Of a stretch of 64,000 nt of DNA, positions 2,331 to 50,609 are shown in pieces. This DNA is from Octopus vulgaris (Eukaryota): contig OX597831.1 of assembly GCA_951406725.2 (NCBI GenBank), positions 72,540,001 to 72,604,000 of the forward strand, read 5' to 3'. Below the pieces are notes generated by a model that was given only the letters and a program-made list of their open reading frames with translations, was not told the DNA's origin and did not search any database. The translations under genes and the position numbers were made by a program. The stretch's first letter is position 1; every line of letters begins with the position of its first letter.

Positions 2331-4334
2331 TTACCACATATCATCATATGTCTGGTTTAGGTAAGCACCCGTAGAATTGATAGATGTCGTTTTTAAACCT
2401 AAAGTCAGACTGCTAGTACTTCCAAGAACACTAACTTGTAGGTGCTGCTTTGAAGTTGAAATTACACTTCGGGAGGATTTCAGGTCCATAGTTAGTGATG
2501 TTAGCCCAGTAAACAGCGGAAGAAGAAATAAAGTGATCAACATACAGAGAATAATGCTTGAACTTGGGACAAAAATCACTACCACCGGAGCAACAACAGC
2601 GGCCAATAAAGTGTACATCCATAAGTGTTTCAGACTGGAGAGGAAAGGATTACAGTTTTTAAATTCTTCTTCGACAGATCTTTGTGGAATCCATTTACAA
2701 TTGGCGGAAATATTCGCCTGGATTGCACGAAAGATGCGTACGCAACCAACAATGGCTTCAGGCGTAAATTGTAAAAATGATGTCAAAATTTCTATAATGA
2801 TGTATTTAGCGTTTGATTTGGTACACGTAGCAAATTTAGGGAAAACAAGAACCAAGAACATGATTATAAAGATTGGTGCATGCGGATACCTTAGGTCTAT
2901 ACCAACGTGTAAACAAATAAATATAAGTAAGAAAGGTTTCATCAGCATCTGCCTTAATGCCGAATGGGCAATATAAGCCGTAACGAAATCAAGTTTACTT
3001 TCGGTCCTCAGAACTGTTTTATTAAACTTATCCCTTTGAAAAACTTTCTGTAAGCTCCTAAAAATTACACCAATCGTATTTTTCCAGAAGTACATGGATA
3101 ATATAACCTCACCTCGATTCCAACGTCGTTCTCGAATGTTCCATGTAACGTAATTAAAACTGGGAGCTTCCAGTAAGAACACTGAGCCGGCATAGTAAGG
3201 TTTGAGTAAAGCTGCTTCAAATGTGTCGTGACTAAGAACATCGATAGGAACACGTTCGATTAGATTGTCTCTATCCCCGATTATATTTTCGATGTATATA
3301 CGGTTTTTGATGAGCCCTTTTCCGAAGAAACCACACTGACCAAGTAATGCTGTGACAGCATTTGTCATTGGCTCGTAGATCATTTGTCTCATCGCTTCCA
3401 GCCTCATGTAAATGGTATCGTTTTCATCGCGACTTAGTTTTATAGATGGTTGAATGATCCCTTTCTCTGGGTTTGCTGCAGCTATCCCGAGAAGCTTTTC
3501 TACCGTTCCATCGGGAACCCCTGTATCGGCATCCAATACTAAGGTGTAATCAAATCGCCGGTTAAATATATTTTGCACGTCAGCTGAATAGTAAAAGGTG
3601 GGCTGGTTATAAGGACGGGCCATCTTTCCATAGTATTTCGTATCAGTATATGTATAAGCAAAAGATTCTCCCTCAGATAGCAACATTAGGTCTTGATATT
3701 GTCCACATTTACGTAAAACTTTACTGGTGCGGTGAATTACCATAAATTCTCGTGCAAATCGATCACATATTGAATCAAGGTGTTGATGAATGAAAATATT
3801 CCCTGGACAGTATTGGTAATACATCCATACGTTCTTAAAACGGTCTTGGTTGATATCGTCATAGTAGCCATTAGCGAAACAGACACCTTCTTTGAAAAGT
3901 TCATCGTATATTAACTTCCGGTATTTATCGCGGCATTCTAACTCACGTGATATGAGATTTTCTTTCGAAGTTGCACTAACAAGAACAGCAGATACATTGA
4001 AACATAAATTGCCCATGAATGCTTGAAACATTGTCTGGAAACATTCTTCAATATCATCAACTGTAACTGCTAACAAGTTATAGTTGAGAATGAGCGTTAA
4101 ATTGTCGCCTTCAGCCGTTGGGTTTTTCCTTCTGTTGCCGCCGACAATCAATGTGGCGATCGTCTGCACGGGGAATTCGTAAACAGATCCTTGTAGGATT
4201 CCAAGCACAATGACAAGAATAATACCTTGTGGTATGCTTGTCTTGTGCCAGTCAATATTGAAAATATTTAGAGCGGCACTACACAGAGCAAAAACGATCC
4301 ATAACATAAAATACAAAAAACTTCCTATATTCAT
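2331..4334 (-). CDS. Intronless membrane-embedded processive GT-A glycosyltransferase, OpgH/MdoH-like (beta-1,2-glucan synthase-like, GT2; some Cgs/NdvB-like motifs)
   Basis: Uninterrupted 667-aa ORF. Two N-terminal hydrophobic segments, a soluble domain with HRTSKVLRKCG, YTLVLDADT, ANPEKGIIQP, LGQCGFFGKGLI, VLSHDTFEAALL, LLEAP..RERRWNRGE, then several C-terminal TM segments with WIPQR. Order and spacing match OpgH (RKxGN, VLDADS, ANPxAGIIQ, LSHDFVEAALM, RDRRWCxGN) as recalled. The ATG has A at -3. Confidence 0.85.
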   Translation of the reverse strand: MNIGSFLYFMLWIVFALCSAALNIFNIDWHKTSIPQGIILVIVLGILQGSVYEFPVQTIATLIVGGNRRKNPTAEGDNLTLILNYNLLAVTVDDIEECFQTMFQAFMGNLCFNVSAVLVSATSKENLISRELECRDKYRKLIYDELFKEGVCFANGYYDDINQDRFKNVWMYYQYCPGNIFIHQHLDSICDRFAREFMVIHRTSKVLRKCGQYQDLMLLSEGESFAYTYTDTKYYGKMARPYNQPTFYYSADVQNIFNRRFDYTLVLDADTGVPDGTVEKLLGIAAANPEKGIIQPSIKLSRDENDTIYMRLEAMRQMIYEPMTNAVTALLGQCGFFGKGLIKNRIYIENIIGDRDNLIERVPIDVLSHDTFEAALLKPYYAGSVFLLEAPSFNYVTWNIRERRWNRGEVILSMYFWKNTIGVIFRSLQKVFQRDKFNKTVLRTESKLDFVTAYIAHSALRQMLMKPFLLIFICLHVGIDLRYPHAPIFIIMFLVLVFPKFATCTKSNAKYIIIEILTSFLQFTPEAIVGCVRIFRAIQANISANCKWIPQRSVEEEFKNCNPFLSSLKHLWMYTLLAAVVAPVVVIFVPSSSIILCMLITLFLLPLFTGLTSLTMDLKSSRSVISTSKQHLQVSVLGSTSSLTLGLKTTSINSTGAYLNQTYDDMW

Positions 4335-27582: not shown

Positions 27583-28018
27583 AACAGGTGCTCACGACCC
27601 TGGAACAAGTTGGAGGAAAAAAAAAGTTGCTATTCAAAAGCTCGGCGTGGTAGTTCTACCGCACCTACCGGGTAATCTTTTTCTTGGTTGCCACCCATTA
27701 GTCTTCGAGGCGTTTCACCAACGCCGTAGAGCTGAAAAAGTAACTCGATGAACTCTTCTAGTTAAGAGCCGATGATTCCAATCACCGACGCTCGCCGAAA
27801 GTTGGCAAGAAGTCACGAACAACTGAGGAGAGTATTCTGGCTTCGAATTTTGGCACGAGGTCAACAGGTTAGGTGCGGGTGGGAGGGGCAGATGGTAAGT
27901 CGATTACATCGGTCCCAACGCTCAAATGGTACTTATTTCATCGACCCCTAAAGGCTGTGATTTGTTTAAATATGTGCGTGCGTGTGTATGTGCACGCATC
28001 ATGCGCATTATTATCCGT

Positions 28019-28049
<31 letters not shown>

Positions 28050-28066
28050 CCGCTTTCCATCTCTCT

Positions 28067-28097
<31 letters not shown>

Positions 28098-28149
28098 CAC
28101 ACACATATATATAAATATATACATATATATGTACACATATATACATGTA

Positions 28150-28198
<49 letters not shown>

Positions 28199-28227
28199 GT
28201 ATATATACATACACGCAATATATATAT

Positions 28228-28281
<54 letters not shown>

Positions 28282-28286
<5 letters not shown>

Positions 28287-29225
28287 TTCTTATATCTATT
28301 TATTTAGTTTTTTTAAATATATATATTTATATATAAAGGGATCTAACGTATTACATTTTAATTTGAGAACTAATTTCCTTAGACAATATATTATTTAATT
28401 ATTAGGTGGCATATTTATTATGTAATATTAAATTTTAAGTTAATTAGGTATTATATTAATTGATATTTAGTCAACTATGTTATAGATTGATATATTAAAT
28501 CTGTAGATACTACACATGTATATTAATTATACAGTTAGCTTTATTTAATGAGTTTGTCTATATTTGAACCATTTCTTATTTTGATTACAATTTAATGACT
28601 TGTACTAGCATTGTGTATTTTAATTAATCTTAAAGTATTTAATAATTTAAGTATTGTTTTAGTTTTCACTTATGTATATTTAGTATTTATATATAAGCGT
28701 GTAAACATGCCCTGGCAAAACCCCTCAAGATTCTCTTCCAGAGCTTTCTTACAAATGGCAAACTGCCAAGCAAGCTGAAGGAGGGAATAATATGCCCAAT
28801 ACATAAAGGGGGAAGTAGAGAAGATGCCAAAAACTATAGGCCTATCTCTCTGACTTCACACATCAGCAAAGTCATGGAACGGATAGTCAGAGGGAAACTA
28901 ATCGCATTCCTTGAAAAAAAAATAACTTGCTAAGTGATACCCAACATGGTTTTCGACCAGGTAGGAGCTACCAGACCCAGCTCTTACAACATTATGACTG
29001 GGTGTTGAGGCAGTTACTCAACAAATCAAATGTGGATGTAATATACGTTGATTTTGCAAAAGCTTTTGACAAGGTGGATCATGGTATGATATGCCACAAA
29101 CTGCGTAACCTCGGTATAGCTGGAAAACTTGGAGTGTGGTTACATGACTTCCTGAAAGATAGGAGTCAGGCAGTAGTGGCTAATGGAGCCACCTCTATGA
29201 ACACACAAATACATACATACATACA

Positions 29226-29256
<31 letters not shown>

Positions 29257-29815
29257 CCATCCAATACATCGACACAGTTTAATGAAATTATTTTGGTGAC
29301 CGATTCCAGAAAACTTAAATTCATTGAAATATCGAACAGCTCTCTTTTAGACTCTTTTGTTGTAGACAAAGCAGTGCTTGTGTTCTTTGTTAAGCCCTCA
29401 TGACTTCCTGGGGTGTGGTTTCTATAACTGTTTGTTCAATATTTTTTACATATTTGCGTGACGGTTATTATTATTTCTGCAGAATTATATACTTAGCGTG
29501 TTACTTAGCACCGAGTAACATAACGTAGGTTGATTTTTGATGAAAGAGATTTACAATCCGTGACATTTACTCTTTTCATGCGTATTTGCGAAAATACAGA
29601 TTATTTTATCGCAATGTATAATTTCCTTTCTTTTATCTAAATATTGTAGTTTTCTATTAAGATGATCGGCGTGCTTTTATTTCTTTCGTTTGCTGTGGTC
29701 TGTCCAGTTTGTTTGTTATGAGAATGTATTGGAGCTGTTGCTGCATATTATAGAAACGGGAATGTTTGTCACGTGTTCGAATATGCCCCAAGTATATTTG
29801 AATTCGTAATAACCT
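28282..29815. repeat. ~1.55-kb segment duplicated at 33331-34892
   Basis: Near-identical direct copy with a few substitutions and a different (TACA)n length. Confidence 0.95.
28709..29207 (+). mobile_element. CR1/L2-like LINE RT fragment (copy at about 33758-34256)
   Basis: NYRPISLTSH, QHGFRPGRS, VDVIYVDFAKAFDKVDHG. Confidence 0.85.
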
Positions 29816-32782: not shown

Positions 32783-33002
32783 ATAAAATAAATATATATA
32801 TATATATCACTCTAGCACCAGTTTAGGTTACACGAAAATATGTTTATGGGAAACATGTATATATAACATACATGACCACTCTCTTATATTTATTTTGTAA
32901 AAATATTATAATATGTTATAAAATATTATATAATCCAGGTTTCTCGTAGCACTACACTTGGTGTGGAATAAATATACTATTAAATTAGTATCTAATTCTC
33001 TC

Positions 33003-33048
<46 letters not shown>

Positions 33049-33067
33049 ATGCAATATATATATATAT

Positions 33068-33113
<46 letters not shown>

Positions 33114-33152
33114 GTATATATACATACATGCAATATATATAACACACACACA

Positions 33153-33195
<43 letters not shown>

Positions 33196-33212
33196 TACAT
33201 ACACATATATAT

Positions 33213-33271
<59 letters not shown>

Positions 33272-33292
33272 TCATACATGCAATATATATAT

Positions 33293-33330
<38 letters not shown>

Positions 33331-33335
<5 letters not shown>

Positions 33336-34302
33336 TTCTTATATCTATTTATTTAGTTTTTTTAAATATATATATTTATATATAAAGGGATCTAACGTAT
33401 TACATTTTAATTTGAGAACTAATTTCCTTAGACAATATATTATTTAATTATTAGGTGGCATATTTATTATGTAATATTAAATTTTAAGTTAATTAGGTAT
33501 TATATTAATTGATATTTAGTCAACTATGTTATAGATTGATATATTAAATCTGTAGATACTACACATGTATATTAATTATACAGTTAGCTTTATTTAATGA
33601 GTTTGTCTATATTTGAACCATTTCTTATTTTGATTACAATTTAATGACTTGTACTAGCATTGTGTATTTTAATTAATCTTAAAGTATTTAATAATTTAAG
33701 TATTGTTTTAGTTTTCACTTATGTATATTTAGTATTTATATATAAGCGTGTAAACATGCCCTGGCAAAACCCCTCAAGATTCTCTTCCAGAGCTTTCTTA
33801 CAAATGGCAAACTGCCAAGCAAGCTGAAGGAGGGAATAATATGCCCAATACATAAAGGGGGAAGTAGAGAAGATGCCAAAAACTATAGGCCTATCTCTCT
33901 GACTTCACACATCAGCAAAGTCATGGAACGGATAGTCAGAGGGAAACTAATTGCATTCCTTGAAAAAAAAATAACTTGCTAAGTGATACCCAACATGGTT
34001 TTCGACCAGGTAGGAGCTACCAGACCCAGCTCTTACAACATTATGACTGGGTGTTGAGGCAGTTACTCAACAATTCAAATGTGGATGTAATATACGTTGA
34101 TTTTGCAAAAGCTTTTGACAAGGTGGATCATGGTATGATATGCCACAAACTGCGTAACCTCGGTATAGCTGGAAAACTTGGAGTGTGGTTACATGACTTC
34201 CTGAAAGATAGGAGTCAGGCAGTAGTGGCTAATGGAGCCACCTCTATGAACACACAAATACATACATACATACATACATACATACATACATACATACATA
34301 CA

Positions 34303-34333
<31 letters not shown>

Positions 34334-34892
34334 CCATCCAATACATCGACACAGTTTAATGAAATTATTTTGGTGACCGATTCCAGAAGACTTAAATTCA
34401 TTGAAATATCGAACAGCTCTCTTTTAGACTCTTTTGTTGTAGACAAAGCAGTGCTTGTGTTCTTTGTTAAGCCCTCATGACTTCCTGGGGTGTGGTTTCT
34501 ATAACTGTTTGTTCAATATTTTTTACATATTTGCGTGACGGTTATTATTATTTCTGCAGAATTATATACTTAGCGTGTTACTTAGCACCGAGTAACATAA
34601 CGTAGGTTGATTTTTGATGAAAGAGATTTACAATCCGTGACATTTACTCTTTTCATGCGTATTTGCGAAAATACAGATTATTTTATCGCAATGTATAATT
34701 TCCTTTCTTTTATCTAAATATTGTAGTTTTCTATTAAGATGATCGGCGTGCTTTTATTTCTTTCGTTTGCTGTGGTCTGTCCAGTTTGTTTGTTATGAGA
34801 ATGTATTGGAGCTGTTGCTGCATATTATAGAAACGGGAATGTTTGTCACGTGTTCGAATATGCCCCAAGTATATTTGAATTCGTAATAACCT
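33331..34892. repeat. Second copy of the 28282-29815 segment
   Basis: Direct sequence match. Confidence 0.95.
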
Positions 34893-48952: not shown

Positions 48953-50609
48953 GTCCGCTCTCCCCGCTTTTGTATGTAATGGCTCTTGAGCCATTGCTGC
49001 GAAAATTGAGCGACATCCCGAGATAGCAGGTTATAGAGAGTCGGTTTCAGCGTACGCGGACGACATTACCATCATCGTAACCGAAATGGATCACCTACAG
49101 AGTGTAGGCGAGGCCACTGAGGAATGCGAGACGGTGGCAGGAGCAAAGGTTAATCGCGAAAAGTCAGTCGGCTTGCAGCTCGGCACCTGGAGAGGCAAGT
49201 CGATGCCTCCTGACAGCGTCGTGGGACGTTGGACGGAAGATCCGATTAAGTTGCTATGTTTAGACCAGGCCCCCAAGTAGAGAACTGGGCCGACGTAGCG
49301 AGCAGAGTAGCCCACATATCCAAGACCTGGTCTTGACGGTGGCTATCCCTGAAAGGGAGGGCGGAGGTGGCCAATGTGTCCATCGCATCGGTCATCACCT
49401 ACCGCCTGACCGTCGTTCCCTGCCCTGATTCGTGGTTGAGCAAGCTGGAAAGACAGCTCTTCGACTTCTTGTGAAAGGGTTCGAATCCGCTTGTGAGACG
49501 CTCCATTTGCTGGCAACAACCGTTTAAAGGGTGGGCTAGGGATGCCTTGGCTGATGATGAGCTGGCACGCGCTGAGGTTGAGGCGTCTGTGGCTCCATCT
49601 GGATGGTGATCGGGTGTGGTCTCCGCTGGCGAAACAGATGTTTCCCAAGTTCACTTGTTTCGGTGGATTGAAAACCTGGTTCTATCGTAGATCAAAGTTG
49701 GGTACATGGTGTACGGAGTGCCGTAAGGCTCTCCGGATATTCCATCTCTCAGGCAACGCCAGCGGTAGTGGTTCTACCACATTCTTCTATAGAGGGTTGG
49801 TAGAGGCGAAATGTGACGATAATCAACTGGCCAGTCTGTTCCAACGTACATTAGGGCCGAAGACACTGGATAACTTCCAGAAGTCTTTAGCATCGCAATA
49901 TTACCGGGGAGCCTTACCTGTCCGAGACAAGCTTACAAGGCATGGTGGCCCTGGCCCACCGACCTGGCCAAGATGTGGGCGGGACAGGGAAACCTTCCTG
50001 CACGCTATTGTTCAGTGTTCGGAGGTATCAGATGTGTAGGTTTATGCCGAACAACTGTTGTCAAGTACAGGATGAGTACAGCTGTCAACTGAGTCAATAG
50101 TAAATATTTTCCCACCGGATTTCCTATCGAAAGAAGGTAAGAATTGCTTTCTCATCGTAGTAGCAATTGCGAGAGAGGTGATTTGGAAGACGCGAATGAA
50201 AGGGTTAATCACAGGCATTTTTATCTCTGGCCCTGGCTTGGCAAATTTCTTCACCTTCCACCTAAGGAAGAAAAATAGGGTTAGAGAAAAAATGCCTGTC
50301 CGCGAAAATGTTCCAAGATCGATGGAAGAATGTCACACGAATGTTGCGTGTGGATGGGACCGCATGAATACAAGGCAGGAAGAACCCAAAGTATCAGTAG
50401 TGAGACGGGGCTCGTGGGGTCTGAGCATATCCCGCCTCCCTACTCCATTCTGTATTGTTGTCTTGTATATGTTATCATTCGAACTATTAATATTTATGTA
50501 AAATTTTTAAACTCATATTTTTGTTAACTCATCCGTGAAATCTGACCCCATATCAGATTGTAATGTCCCCTCTTTGTTGTTCCCTTGTAAGAAATAAAAA
50601 AATTTGCAA

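Follow-up and report, generated by a model that had tools for sequence, protein, structure and literature searches.

The closest described relatives of the enzyme considered here are the bacterial glucan synthases OpgH (MdoH) and Cgs. Both are described as making β-1,2-glucan from UDP-glucose (PMC10901819, PMC11842490, PMC10491104), and OpgH had, as of PMC10491104, not yet been reconstituted from purified protein. For Cgs, PMC10901819 describes a bundle of six transmembrane (TM) helices that forms no export channel; the cyclic glucan leaves the bacteria via an ABC transporter (PMC11842490). A triple mutation of D624, D626 and D739 inactivates Cgs (PMC10901819).

We analyzed a stretch of 64,000 nucleotides from the genome of Octopus vulgaris, referred to as the window. 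An earlier note had described an open reading frame in it as a bacterial-type, OpgH/Cgs-like gene and proposed that it was acquired horizontally and domesticated. The gene is real and is a variant of the OpgH/Cgs kind, and its family is wider and older than that note held; its product is predicted from sequence and structural model. For the coordinates of all features see Table 1.

Table 1. Features of the glycosyltransferase gene in the window (positions in nucleotides, residues of the encoded protein).
Feature	Position	Strand	Basis
Stand-alone Cgs/GT84-like membrane glycosyltransferase ORF, 667 aa (copy A of inverted pair)	2331..4334	-	uninterrupted ATG-to-stop frame
TM1-TM2, residues 7-52	4179..4316	-	family hydropathy; helices in model
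Ala121 at site of first UDP-binding Asp (Cgs D527)	3972..3974	-	alignment
Catalytic-core tract 98-100% identical to copy B; likely gene-conversion tract	2985..3734	-	copy A/B alignment
RKCGQYQD, residues 208-215, aligned with OpgH RKSGN and Cgs RKRGK	3690..3713	-	alignment
DxD motif, D268/D270 (Cgs D624/D626)	3525..3533	-	D268 in 81/81, D270 in 80/81 rows
SHD motif, D370 predicted catalytic base (Cgs D739)	3225..3233	-	81/81 rows
RERRW, residues 401-405; R404 = Cgs R773	3120..3134	-	R404 in 81/81, W405 in 80/81 rows
TM3-TM4, residues 463-504	2823..2948	-	hydropathy; model
TM5-TM6, residues 571-611, after 66-residue interface stretch	2502..2624	-	hydropathy; model

Gene and genomic context

The gene in the window, copy A, is an intronless frame that runs from one ATG to the stop codon over 667 uninterrupted codons. 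Measured from stop to stop it spans 676 residues, more than any other of the 111 frames with 100 residues or more, which bears out the long, clean reading frame described earlier. The runner-up (308 residues) is a reverse-transcriptase remnant; the long frames scanned elsewhere in the window are LINE remnants or have no family assignment, three of nine matching a reverse transcriptase or an endonuclease. The earlier description of copy A as the only long clean frame holds within the 64 kb of the window, but a paralog is located outside it.

Copy A lies on an 84-Mb contig of the 2.8-Gb genome and is flanked by host microsatellite and LINE sequence. Its GC3 of 0.37 is host-like, and the protein is 93–94% identical to named proteins of O. 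vulgaris and O. bimaculoides. Elsewhere in the window, repeated ORF translations mark two near-identical blocks of microsatellite and LINE reverse-transcriptase remnant (about 27900–29400 and 32900–34400), and a degraded fragment of eukaryotic SSU rRNA (3′ part, 128.6 bits) is found at 48373–49600 on the minus strand.

Predicted structure and family assignment

Structure prediction, one of the checks suggested in the earlier note, yielded an AlphaFold2 model of copy A with a mean pLDDT of 86.9 and a pTM of 0.86, confident over residues 1–625. The three best PDB matches of this model are all Cgs (Foldseek E 2.7e-15, TM-score 0.59). A superposition of residues 1–631 with residues 404–991 of Agrobacterium Cgs, comprising the module from TM1 through the GT84 domain to TM6, matched end to end with a Z-score of 24.3 and an r.m.s.d. 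of 3.6 (514 aligned residues, 14–15% identity). BcsA (Z 18.6), PcManGT (Z 17.8) and hyaluronan synthase (Z 16.3) follow at lower scores, and chitin synthases reach TM-scores of 0.25–0.29 only. No OpgH entry occurs among the PDB fold matches, so OpgH is not ranked there; predicted models of OpgH clusters in the Atlas gave TM-scores of 0.66–0.71.

Family-averaged hydropathy indicates six TM segments (residues 7–25, 34–52, 463–481, 486–504, 571–589 and 593–611), that is two at the N-terminus and four towards the C-terminus, in agreement with the two plus several proposed before. Copy A shares with Cgs the predicted TM1–GT–TM6 fold and the 2+2+2 arrangement of the TM helices; the Cgs counterpart of the interface stretch in front of TM5 comprises 76 residues (PMC10901819). 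Cgs is, however, much longer (about 2,800 residues), and copy A is devoid of its N-terminal domain, its cyclase and its phosphorylase: the protein ends at residue 667 without a cyclase or GH94 phosphorylase domain, and the Pfam families in question are likewise missing from the domain lists of all 31 longer homologues. Two insertions in the GT domain are specific to the family and distinguish it further from Cgs. E. coli OpgH comprises 847 residues and is 28% identical to copy A over 170 residues.

Searches with sequence models gave only sub-threshold GT2 matches in Pfam. The sole NCBIfam matches of copy A were eight MdoH models (best E 2.3e-9), all of them below their curated cut-offs (best 36 bits versus 419), whereas no Pfam or NCBIfam model of chitin, hyaluronan or cellulose synthases matched at E-values up to 1. 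The family profile found Cgs as its best PDB matches (E 0.0019). In profile–profile comparisons, whose scores are in part due to the greater depth of the family alignment, the family scored 157 with Cgs over 510 columns (TM1 to TM6) and 127 with OpgH, compared with 91 between OpgH and Cgs. Controls with the family HMM resulted in 54.5 and 48.5 bits for Cgs, 49.5 for OpgH, −1.4 for BcsA and −7.8 for PgaC. In a rapidly built tree of 98 rows, in which long branches were flagged, the family formed a third branch next to OpgH and Cgs.

These results support kinship to the β-1,2-glucan synthases OpgH and Cgs, and not to chitin, cellulose or hyaluronan synthases, as had been read from the motifs alone. 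Judging from the model, the protein is most aptly viewed as a self-contained form of the GT84 module of Cgs, a putative third branch that is a member of neither OpgH nor Cgs. With the cellulose, hyaluronan and chitin synthases it has in common the GT-A fold under a TM bundle (Z 15–18.6 for BcsA, CesA and HAS). The channel-forming GT2 synthases differ, however, in their lower structural scores, in the lack of a profile match to BcsA or PgaC and in their motifs, which are TED/EDR and QxxRW instead of SHD and RxxRW. The analogy to tunicate cellulose synthase drawn in the earlier note is accordingly a weak one, since the TM bundle of the Cgs type is described as forming no export channel (PMC10901819).

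Active site

Conservation was counted in the family alignment of 81 rows, and Cgs residues are numbered according to PMC10901819. All motifs quoted from the first inspection are present in copy A: RKCG (starting at residue 208), LDADT (267), GIIQP (292), GFFGKG (335), LSHDTFE (367) and RERRW (401). Their assignment was also sound. E. coli OpgH carries ILSHDFVEAAL and RDRRW, matching the LSHD..EAAL and RxRRW signature, and Cgs-type proteins carry both LDADT and GxFxGKG. Common to the family and Cgs are the DxD motif, the SHD motif with the catalytic base, the RW, GKG and QP motifs and the equivalent of R586. OpgH shares SHD..EAAL, R.RRW, RK.G and DxD, but has GHN where the family has GKG.

The equivalents of the three residues whose mutation inactivates Cgs (D624, D626 and D739) are retained in 81, 80 and 81 of the 81 rows. 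Arg208, corresponding to R586 of Cgs, is Arg or Lys throughout, and Lys209, Gly211, Tyr213 and Asp215 each occur in 81 of 81 rows. The GQYQD sequence following the RK motif is invariant and specific to this family.

The catalytic residues had been thought to be intact. This is correct for the DxD, SHD and RW motifs, but not for the first UDP-binding aspartate (D527 in Cgs), which is Ala121 in copy A. Asp is found at this position in none of the 81 family rows, where it is replaced by Ala, Val, Thr or Ser, compared with six out of six rows for both OpgH and Cgs. The primer loop of Cgs (the unwound IF1 loop with Tyr694) is absent as well: the family alignment has a three-residue gap at DPY, and the AlphaFold2 model predicts a helix at residues 308–331 where this loop is unwound in Cgs. 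A tyrosine at residue 320 is present in only 23 of 81 rows; the primer could be located elsewhere.

Proposed product and mechanism

Based on the model and on the two flanking families we propose the following mechanism, to which we assign about even chances: copy A would be a cytosol-facing glucosyltransferase that makes linear oligomers of β-1,2-glucan, which a separate transporter would export. UDP-glucose would serve as the donor, and the predicted cytosolic GT domain would join glucose into short, linear β-1,2 chains, because OpgH and Cgs both do so. The chains would be released into the cytosol and subsequently exported by an ABCC-type transporter.

The export step is suggested by the domain architecture of relatives. 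ABC-transporter domains are present in 22 of the 31 longer homologues and an MFS domain in one. In 16 of 23 proteins examined, the first ATPase domain harbors one to three GT modules, which separate its Walker A from its Walker B motif. The 22 fusions are of microbial-eukaryote type, and just one of them is assigned to a species, the dinoflagellate Gymnodinium smaydae. Such ABCC-type transporters with one to three GT copies inside the first ATPase domain are P0154–P0160, P0313–P0328 and L021–L024; the last GT copy of P0154 and P0156 is without catalytic motifs. A synthase inside an ABC transporter is, taken by itself, already an unusual arrangement.

As a Rosetta-stone argument, the fusion of the GT into ABC exporters hints at a soluble, pumped product rather than an extruded fiber. 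The 22 fused homologues echo the export of cyclic glucan by Cgt/NdvA, where a channel-less synthase is likewise combined with an ABC exporter. They differ from it in that a full transporter of the ABCC type contains the GT within its first ATPase domain, whereas the animal and viral family members are unfused. For the unfused animal enzyme an ABCC exporter would be a putative partner by analogy to the fused proteins.

The remote likeness to characterized enzymes (14–15% structural identity to Cgs, 28% over a limited stretch to OpgH) weighs against a β-1,2-glucan. An enzyme with the same fold and processive chemistry, but with another donor or linkage, is a possibility that we take seriously without favoring it; its product could be a β-1,3/1,6-glucan, a galactan or a polymer made from a GDP-sugar. 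GT2-fold enzymes change their linkage readily, and snail galactogen is an example of a galactan. The donor may differ from UDP-glucose because the first UDP-binding Asp is absent from all 81 rows, and the invariant GQYQD, like the low identity to Cgs and OpgH, fits a deviating specificity. In the octopus genome, exon-wise searches for partner enzymes of β-1,2-glucan gave no match to GH144-like (PF10091) or OpgG (PF04349) proteins, both weak negatives. A β-1,2-glucan is favored, on the other hand, by both nearest characterized relatives, which make this polymer and to which the family scores higher than they do to each other. Neither BcsA nor PgaC matched, and the SHD..E and RW..G motifs on the acceptor side are those common to OpgH and Cgs.

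A non-processive transferase, which would transfer a single sugar or a small number of them to a lipid, a protein or a small molecule and whose ABCC fusion would export the conjugate, appears unlikely to us. ABCC transporters do export conjugates, the primer loop is absent, a channel is not expected by analogy to Cgs, and the membrane monosaccharide transferase PcManGT also matches the model. Nevertheless, RxxRW and the complete arrangement of six TM segments seen in Cgs are kept, and the match to Cgs exceeds that to PcManGT by 6.5 in Z-score and by 185 in aligned residues.

Paralogous copies and selection

A protein search of the octopus genome resulted in two matches, copy A and a paralog of 654 residues (copy B); a stricter first look was used in this search, which distant copies could escape. 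Copy B is located outside the window (G000:C18:72530068-72532032, plus strand), tail to tail with copy A and 10,298 bases apart. Over CDS bases 601–1350 the two copies are 98–100% identical, compared with 55–77% at the gene ends. The dS values show the same division, with 0.014–0.067 in codons 201–430 versus 0.24–0.41 elsewhere.

In Argonauta, two proteins likewise agree almost fully in the core and diverge towards their ends. Copy A matches one of the two at its C-terminus (19/42 versus 5/38), and a weaker signal is seen for copy B (9/35 versus 4/39). On the grounds of this shared pattern and the C-terminal matches, the duplication likely predates the split of Octopus and Argonauta, and the catalytic core has likely been homogenized by long-running gene conversion between the copies. 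As an alternative, the near-identical core could stem from assembly cross-talk.

The dN/dS analysis that had been suggested gave a value of 0.30 between copies A and B (codons 1–620). Between the genes of two bivalve-like contigs, pN is 0.075 with saturated dS. Purifying selection in the octopus and in the bivalve-like contigs is supported by these comparisons. That copy A might be a contamination or an inactive relic is very improbable and already contradicted by the host-type flanks on the 84-Mb contig, by orthologues in Argonauta (82% identity) and O. bimaculoides (94%) and by the signs of purifying selection; on the same evidence, its description as a genuine host gene stands.

Distribution of the family

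A total of 166 homologues was found. Among the 120 listed, 45 bear organism names, comprising 40 mollusc rows from 20 genera (cephalopods, gastropods and bivalves) and five rows from three hemichordates; two nemerteans and two dinoflagellates were named as further members. Names of vertebrates, arthropods, nematodes, cnidarians, fungi or plants do not occur among these 45 of 120 rows, most rows being without a name. With the profile, 421 matches were obtained among 1.84 billion representatives, 110 of them below 1e-30.

Near-consecutive locus tags (P0011, P0019, P0043, P0062; P0054, P0055, P0081; P0098, P0102) suggest tandem arrays in Sinanodonta, Dreissena and Glandiceps. One gene model from Batillaria (P0091) combines the enzyme with a PF11790 glycoside-hydrolase domain, possibly by predictor-merged neighbors. 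P0104 and P0108–P0120 form a well-supported, probably microbial-eukaryote clade with long N-termini of low complexity.

Dinoflagellate-type proteins are the closest non-animal relatives (44–50% identity); viral and bacterial proteins are 27–36% identical. Giant-virus contigs contain full-length members with 32–34% identity (three loci, two labelled GVMAG), and the same low-GC giant-virus type was seen in 15 of 38 metagenome loci, three of them on the same contigs. In contigs of the giant-virus type (L011–L013, L028–L031, L033–L041) the members are full-length with intact motifs and often stand, as judged by eye, beside a topoisomerase-II-like gene. No constant sugar-enzyme partner was seen in the viral neighborhoods examined.

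Bacterial members are rare and remote, with one GTDB locus at 27% identity in a pattern-limited search. In the phylum of this locus 11 of 301 genomes match, strongly only in the genome of the locus itself and at an OpgH-like level in the other ten. The bacterial members L014:1-3471 and L042:1102-4482 possess an extra N-terminal GT2 domain and are thus two-transferase proteins of about 1,100 residues. A second subfamily of roughly 1,100 residues on transcript-like contigs (L044–L050) clusters with the rows of bacterial type, and its RxxRW motif is altered; four of these contigs start with what we take to be a spliced-leader-like sequence.

The earlier note had left open whether homologues are annotated in other invertebrates. 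They are, by automatic annotation: NCBI names three listed homologues 'glucans biosynthesis glucosyltransferase H(-like)'. Literature with the phrase 'glucans biosynthesis glucosyltransferase' looks entirely bacterial from titles and the beginnings of abstracts, and the main text of PMC4729200, as far as available, contains neither 'glucan' nor 'glucosyl'. We found no description of the family in animals, dinoflagellates or viruses in a search whose coverage largely excluded subscription journals. The family is thus present in databases under automatic labels and without a description in the literature searched.

Evolutionary history

A mixture-model tree was calculated from 52 rows selected from the alignment of 98, with OpgH and Cgs left out; groups for constrained trees were chosen after this tree had been seen. 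It recovered cephalopods (100/99), gastropods (98/92), two pteriomorph bivalves (100/99) and hemichordates (98/96), together with divergent extra paralogs of bivalves. From the recovered cephalopod, gastropod and pteriomorph groups we infer vertical inheritance in molluscs since at least the common ancestor of cephalopods, gastropods and bivalves.

The dinoflagellate-type clade (100/99) falls among the animal rows, nested with the molluscs (96/98). A single clade of molluscs and hemichordates is, however, not rejected (AU p 0.40), and a transfer from animals to dinoflagellates was for this reason dropped. Grouping the animals with the two bacterial-type rows and the dinoflagellates with the viruses is not rejected either (AU p 0.54); the constrained tree is 1.3 log units better, and the claim of a non-bacterial donor was dropped as well.

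An ancient transfer into animals is possible, and the tree names no donor. The family may go back to a single early acquisition followed by many losses or to repeated transfers, possibly through giant viruses. The reading frame is intronless in the octopus and in two bivalve-like contigs, which fits a foreign or a retroposed origin without proving either. Of the horizontal acquisition proposed earlier, an ancient event may thus survive, while domestication from bacteria at the level of cephalopods is refuted by homologues in gastropods, bivalves, hemichordates and nemerteans. A recent transfer from a bacterium to a cephalopod, with which the intronless frame would agree and for which the AU test leaves at most an ancient bacterial donor, is practically discounted by the 40 mollusc and five hemichordate rows among 120 listed plus two nemerteans, by the recovered mollusc groups, by the host-like GC3 and by the rarity of bacterial relatives, which are 27% identical and of a close type in one of 301 genomes of the phylum.

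Implications

To our knowledge, only a few polysaccharide synthases with the GT2-type fold are attributed to animals, namely those for chitin, hyaluronan and tunicate cellulose. A conserved, often tandemly expanded Cgs-like synthase in molluscs, hemichordates and nemerteans predicts an uncharacterized animal glycan, and the animal gene supplies an enzyme for testing this prediction. The stand-alone module is also a minimal model of 620 residues for GT84 chemistry. Our broadest proposal is a tentative one: molluscs, acorn worms and ribbon worms would make β-1,2-glucan by a third, stand-alone branch of the OpgH/Cgs enzymes, dinoflagellates would have joined synthase and pump in one chain, and giant viruses would carry the module between eukaryotes. 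On our main reading these animals likely make this glucose polymer, which has until now been known chiefly from bacteria. Bacterial β-1,2-glucans serve osmoadaptation and host interaction (PMC11842490), and such a role, if it applies here, would bear directly on invertebrates of marine and estuarine habitats.
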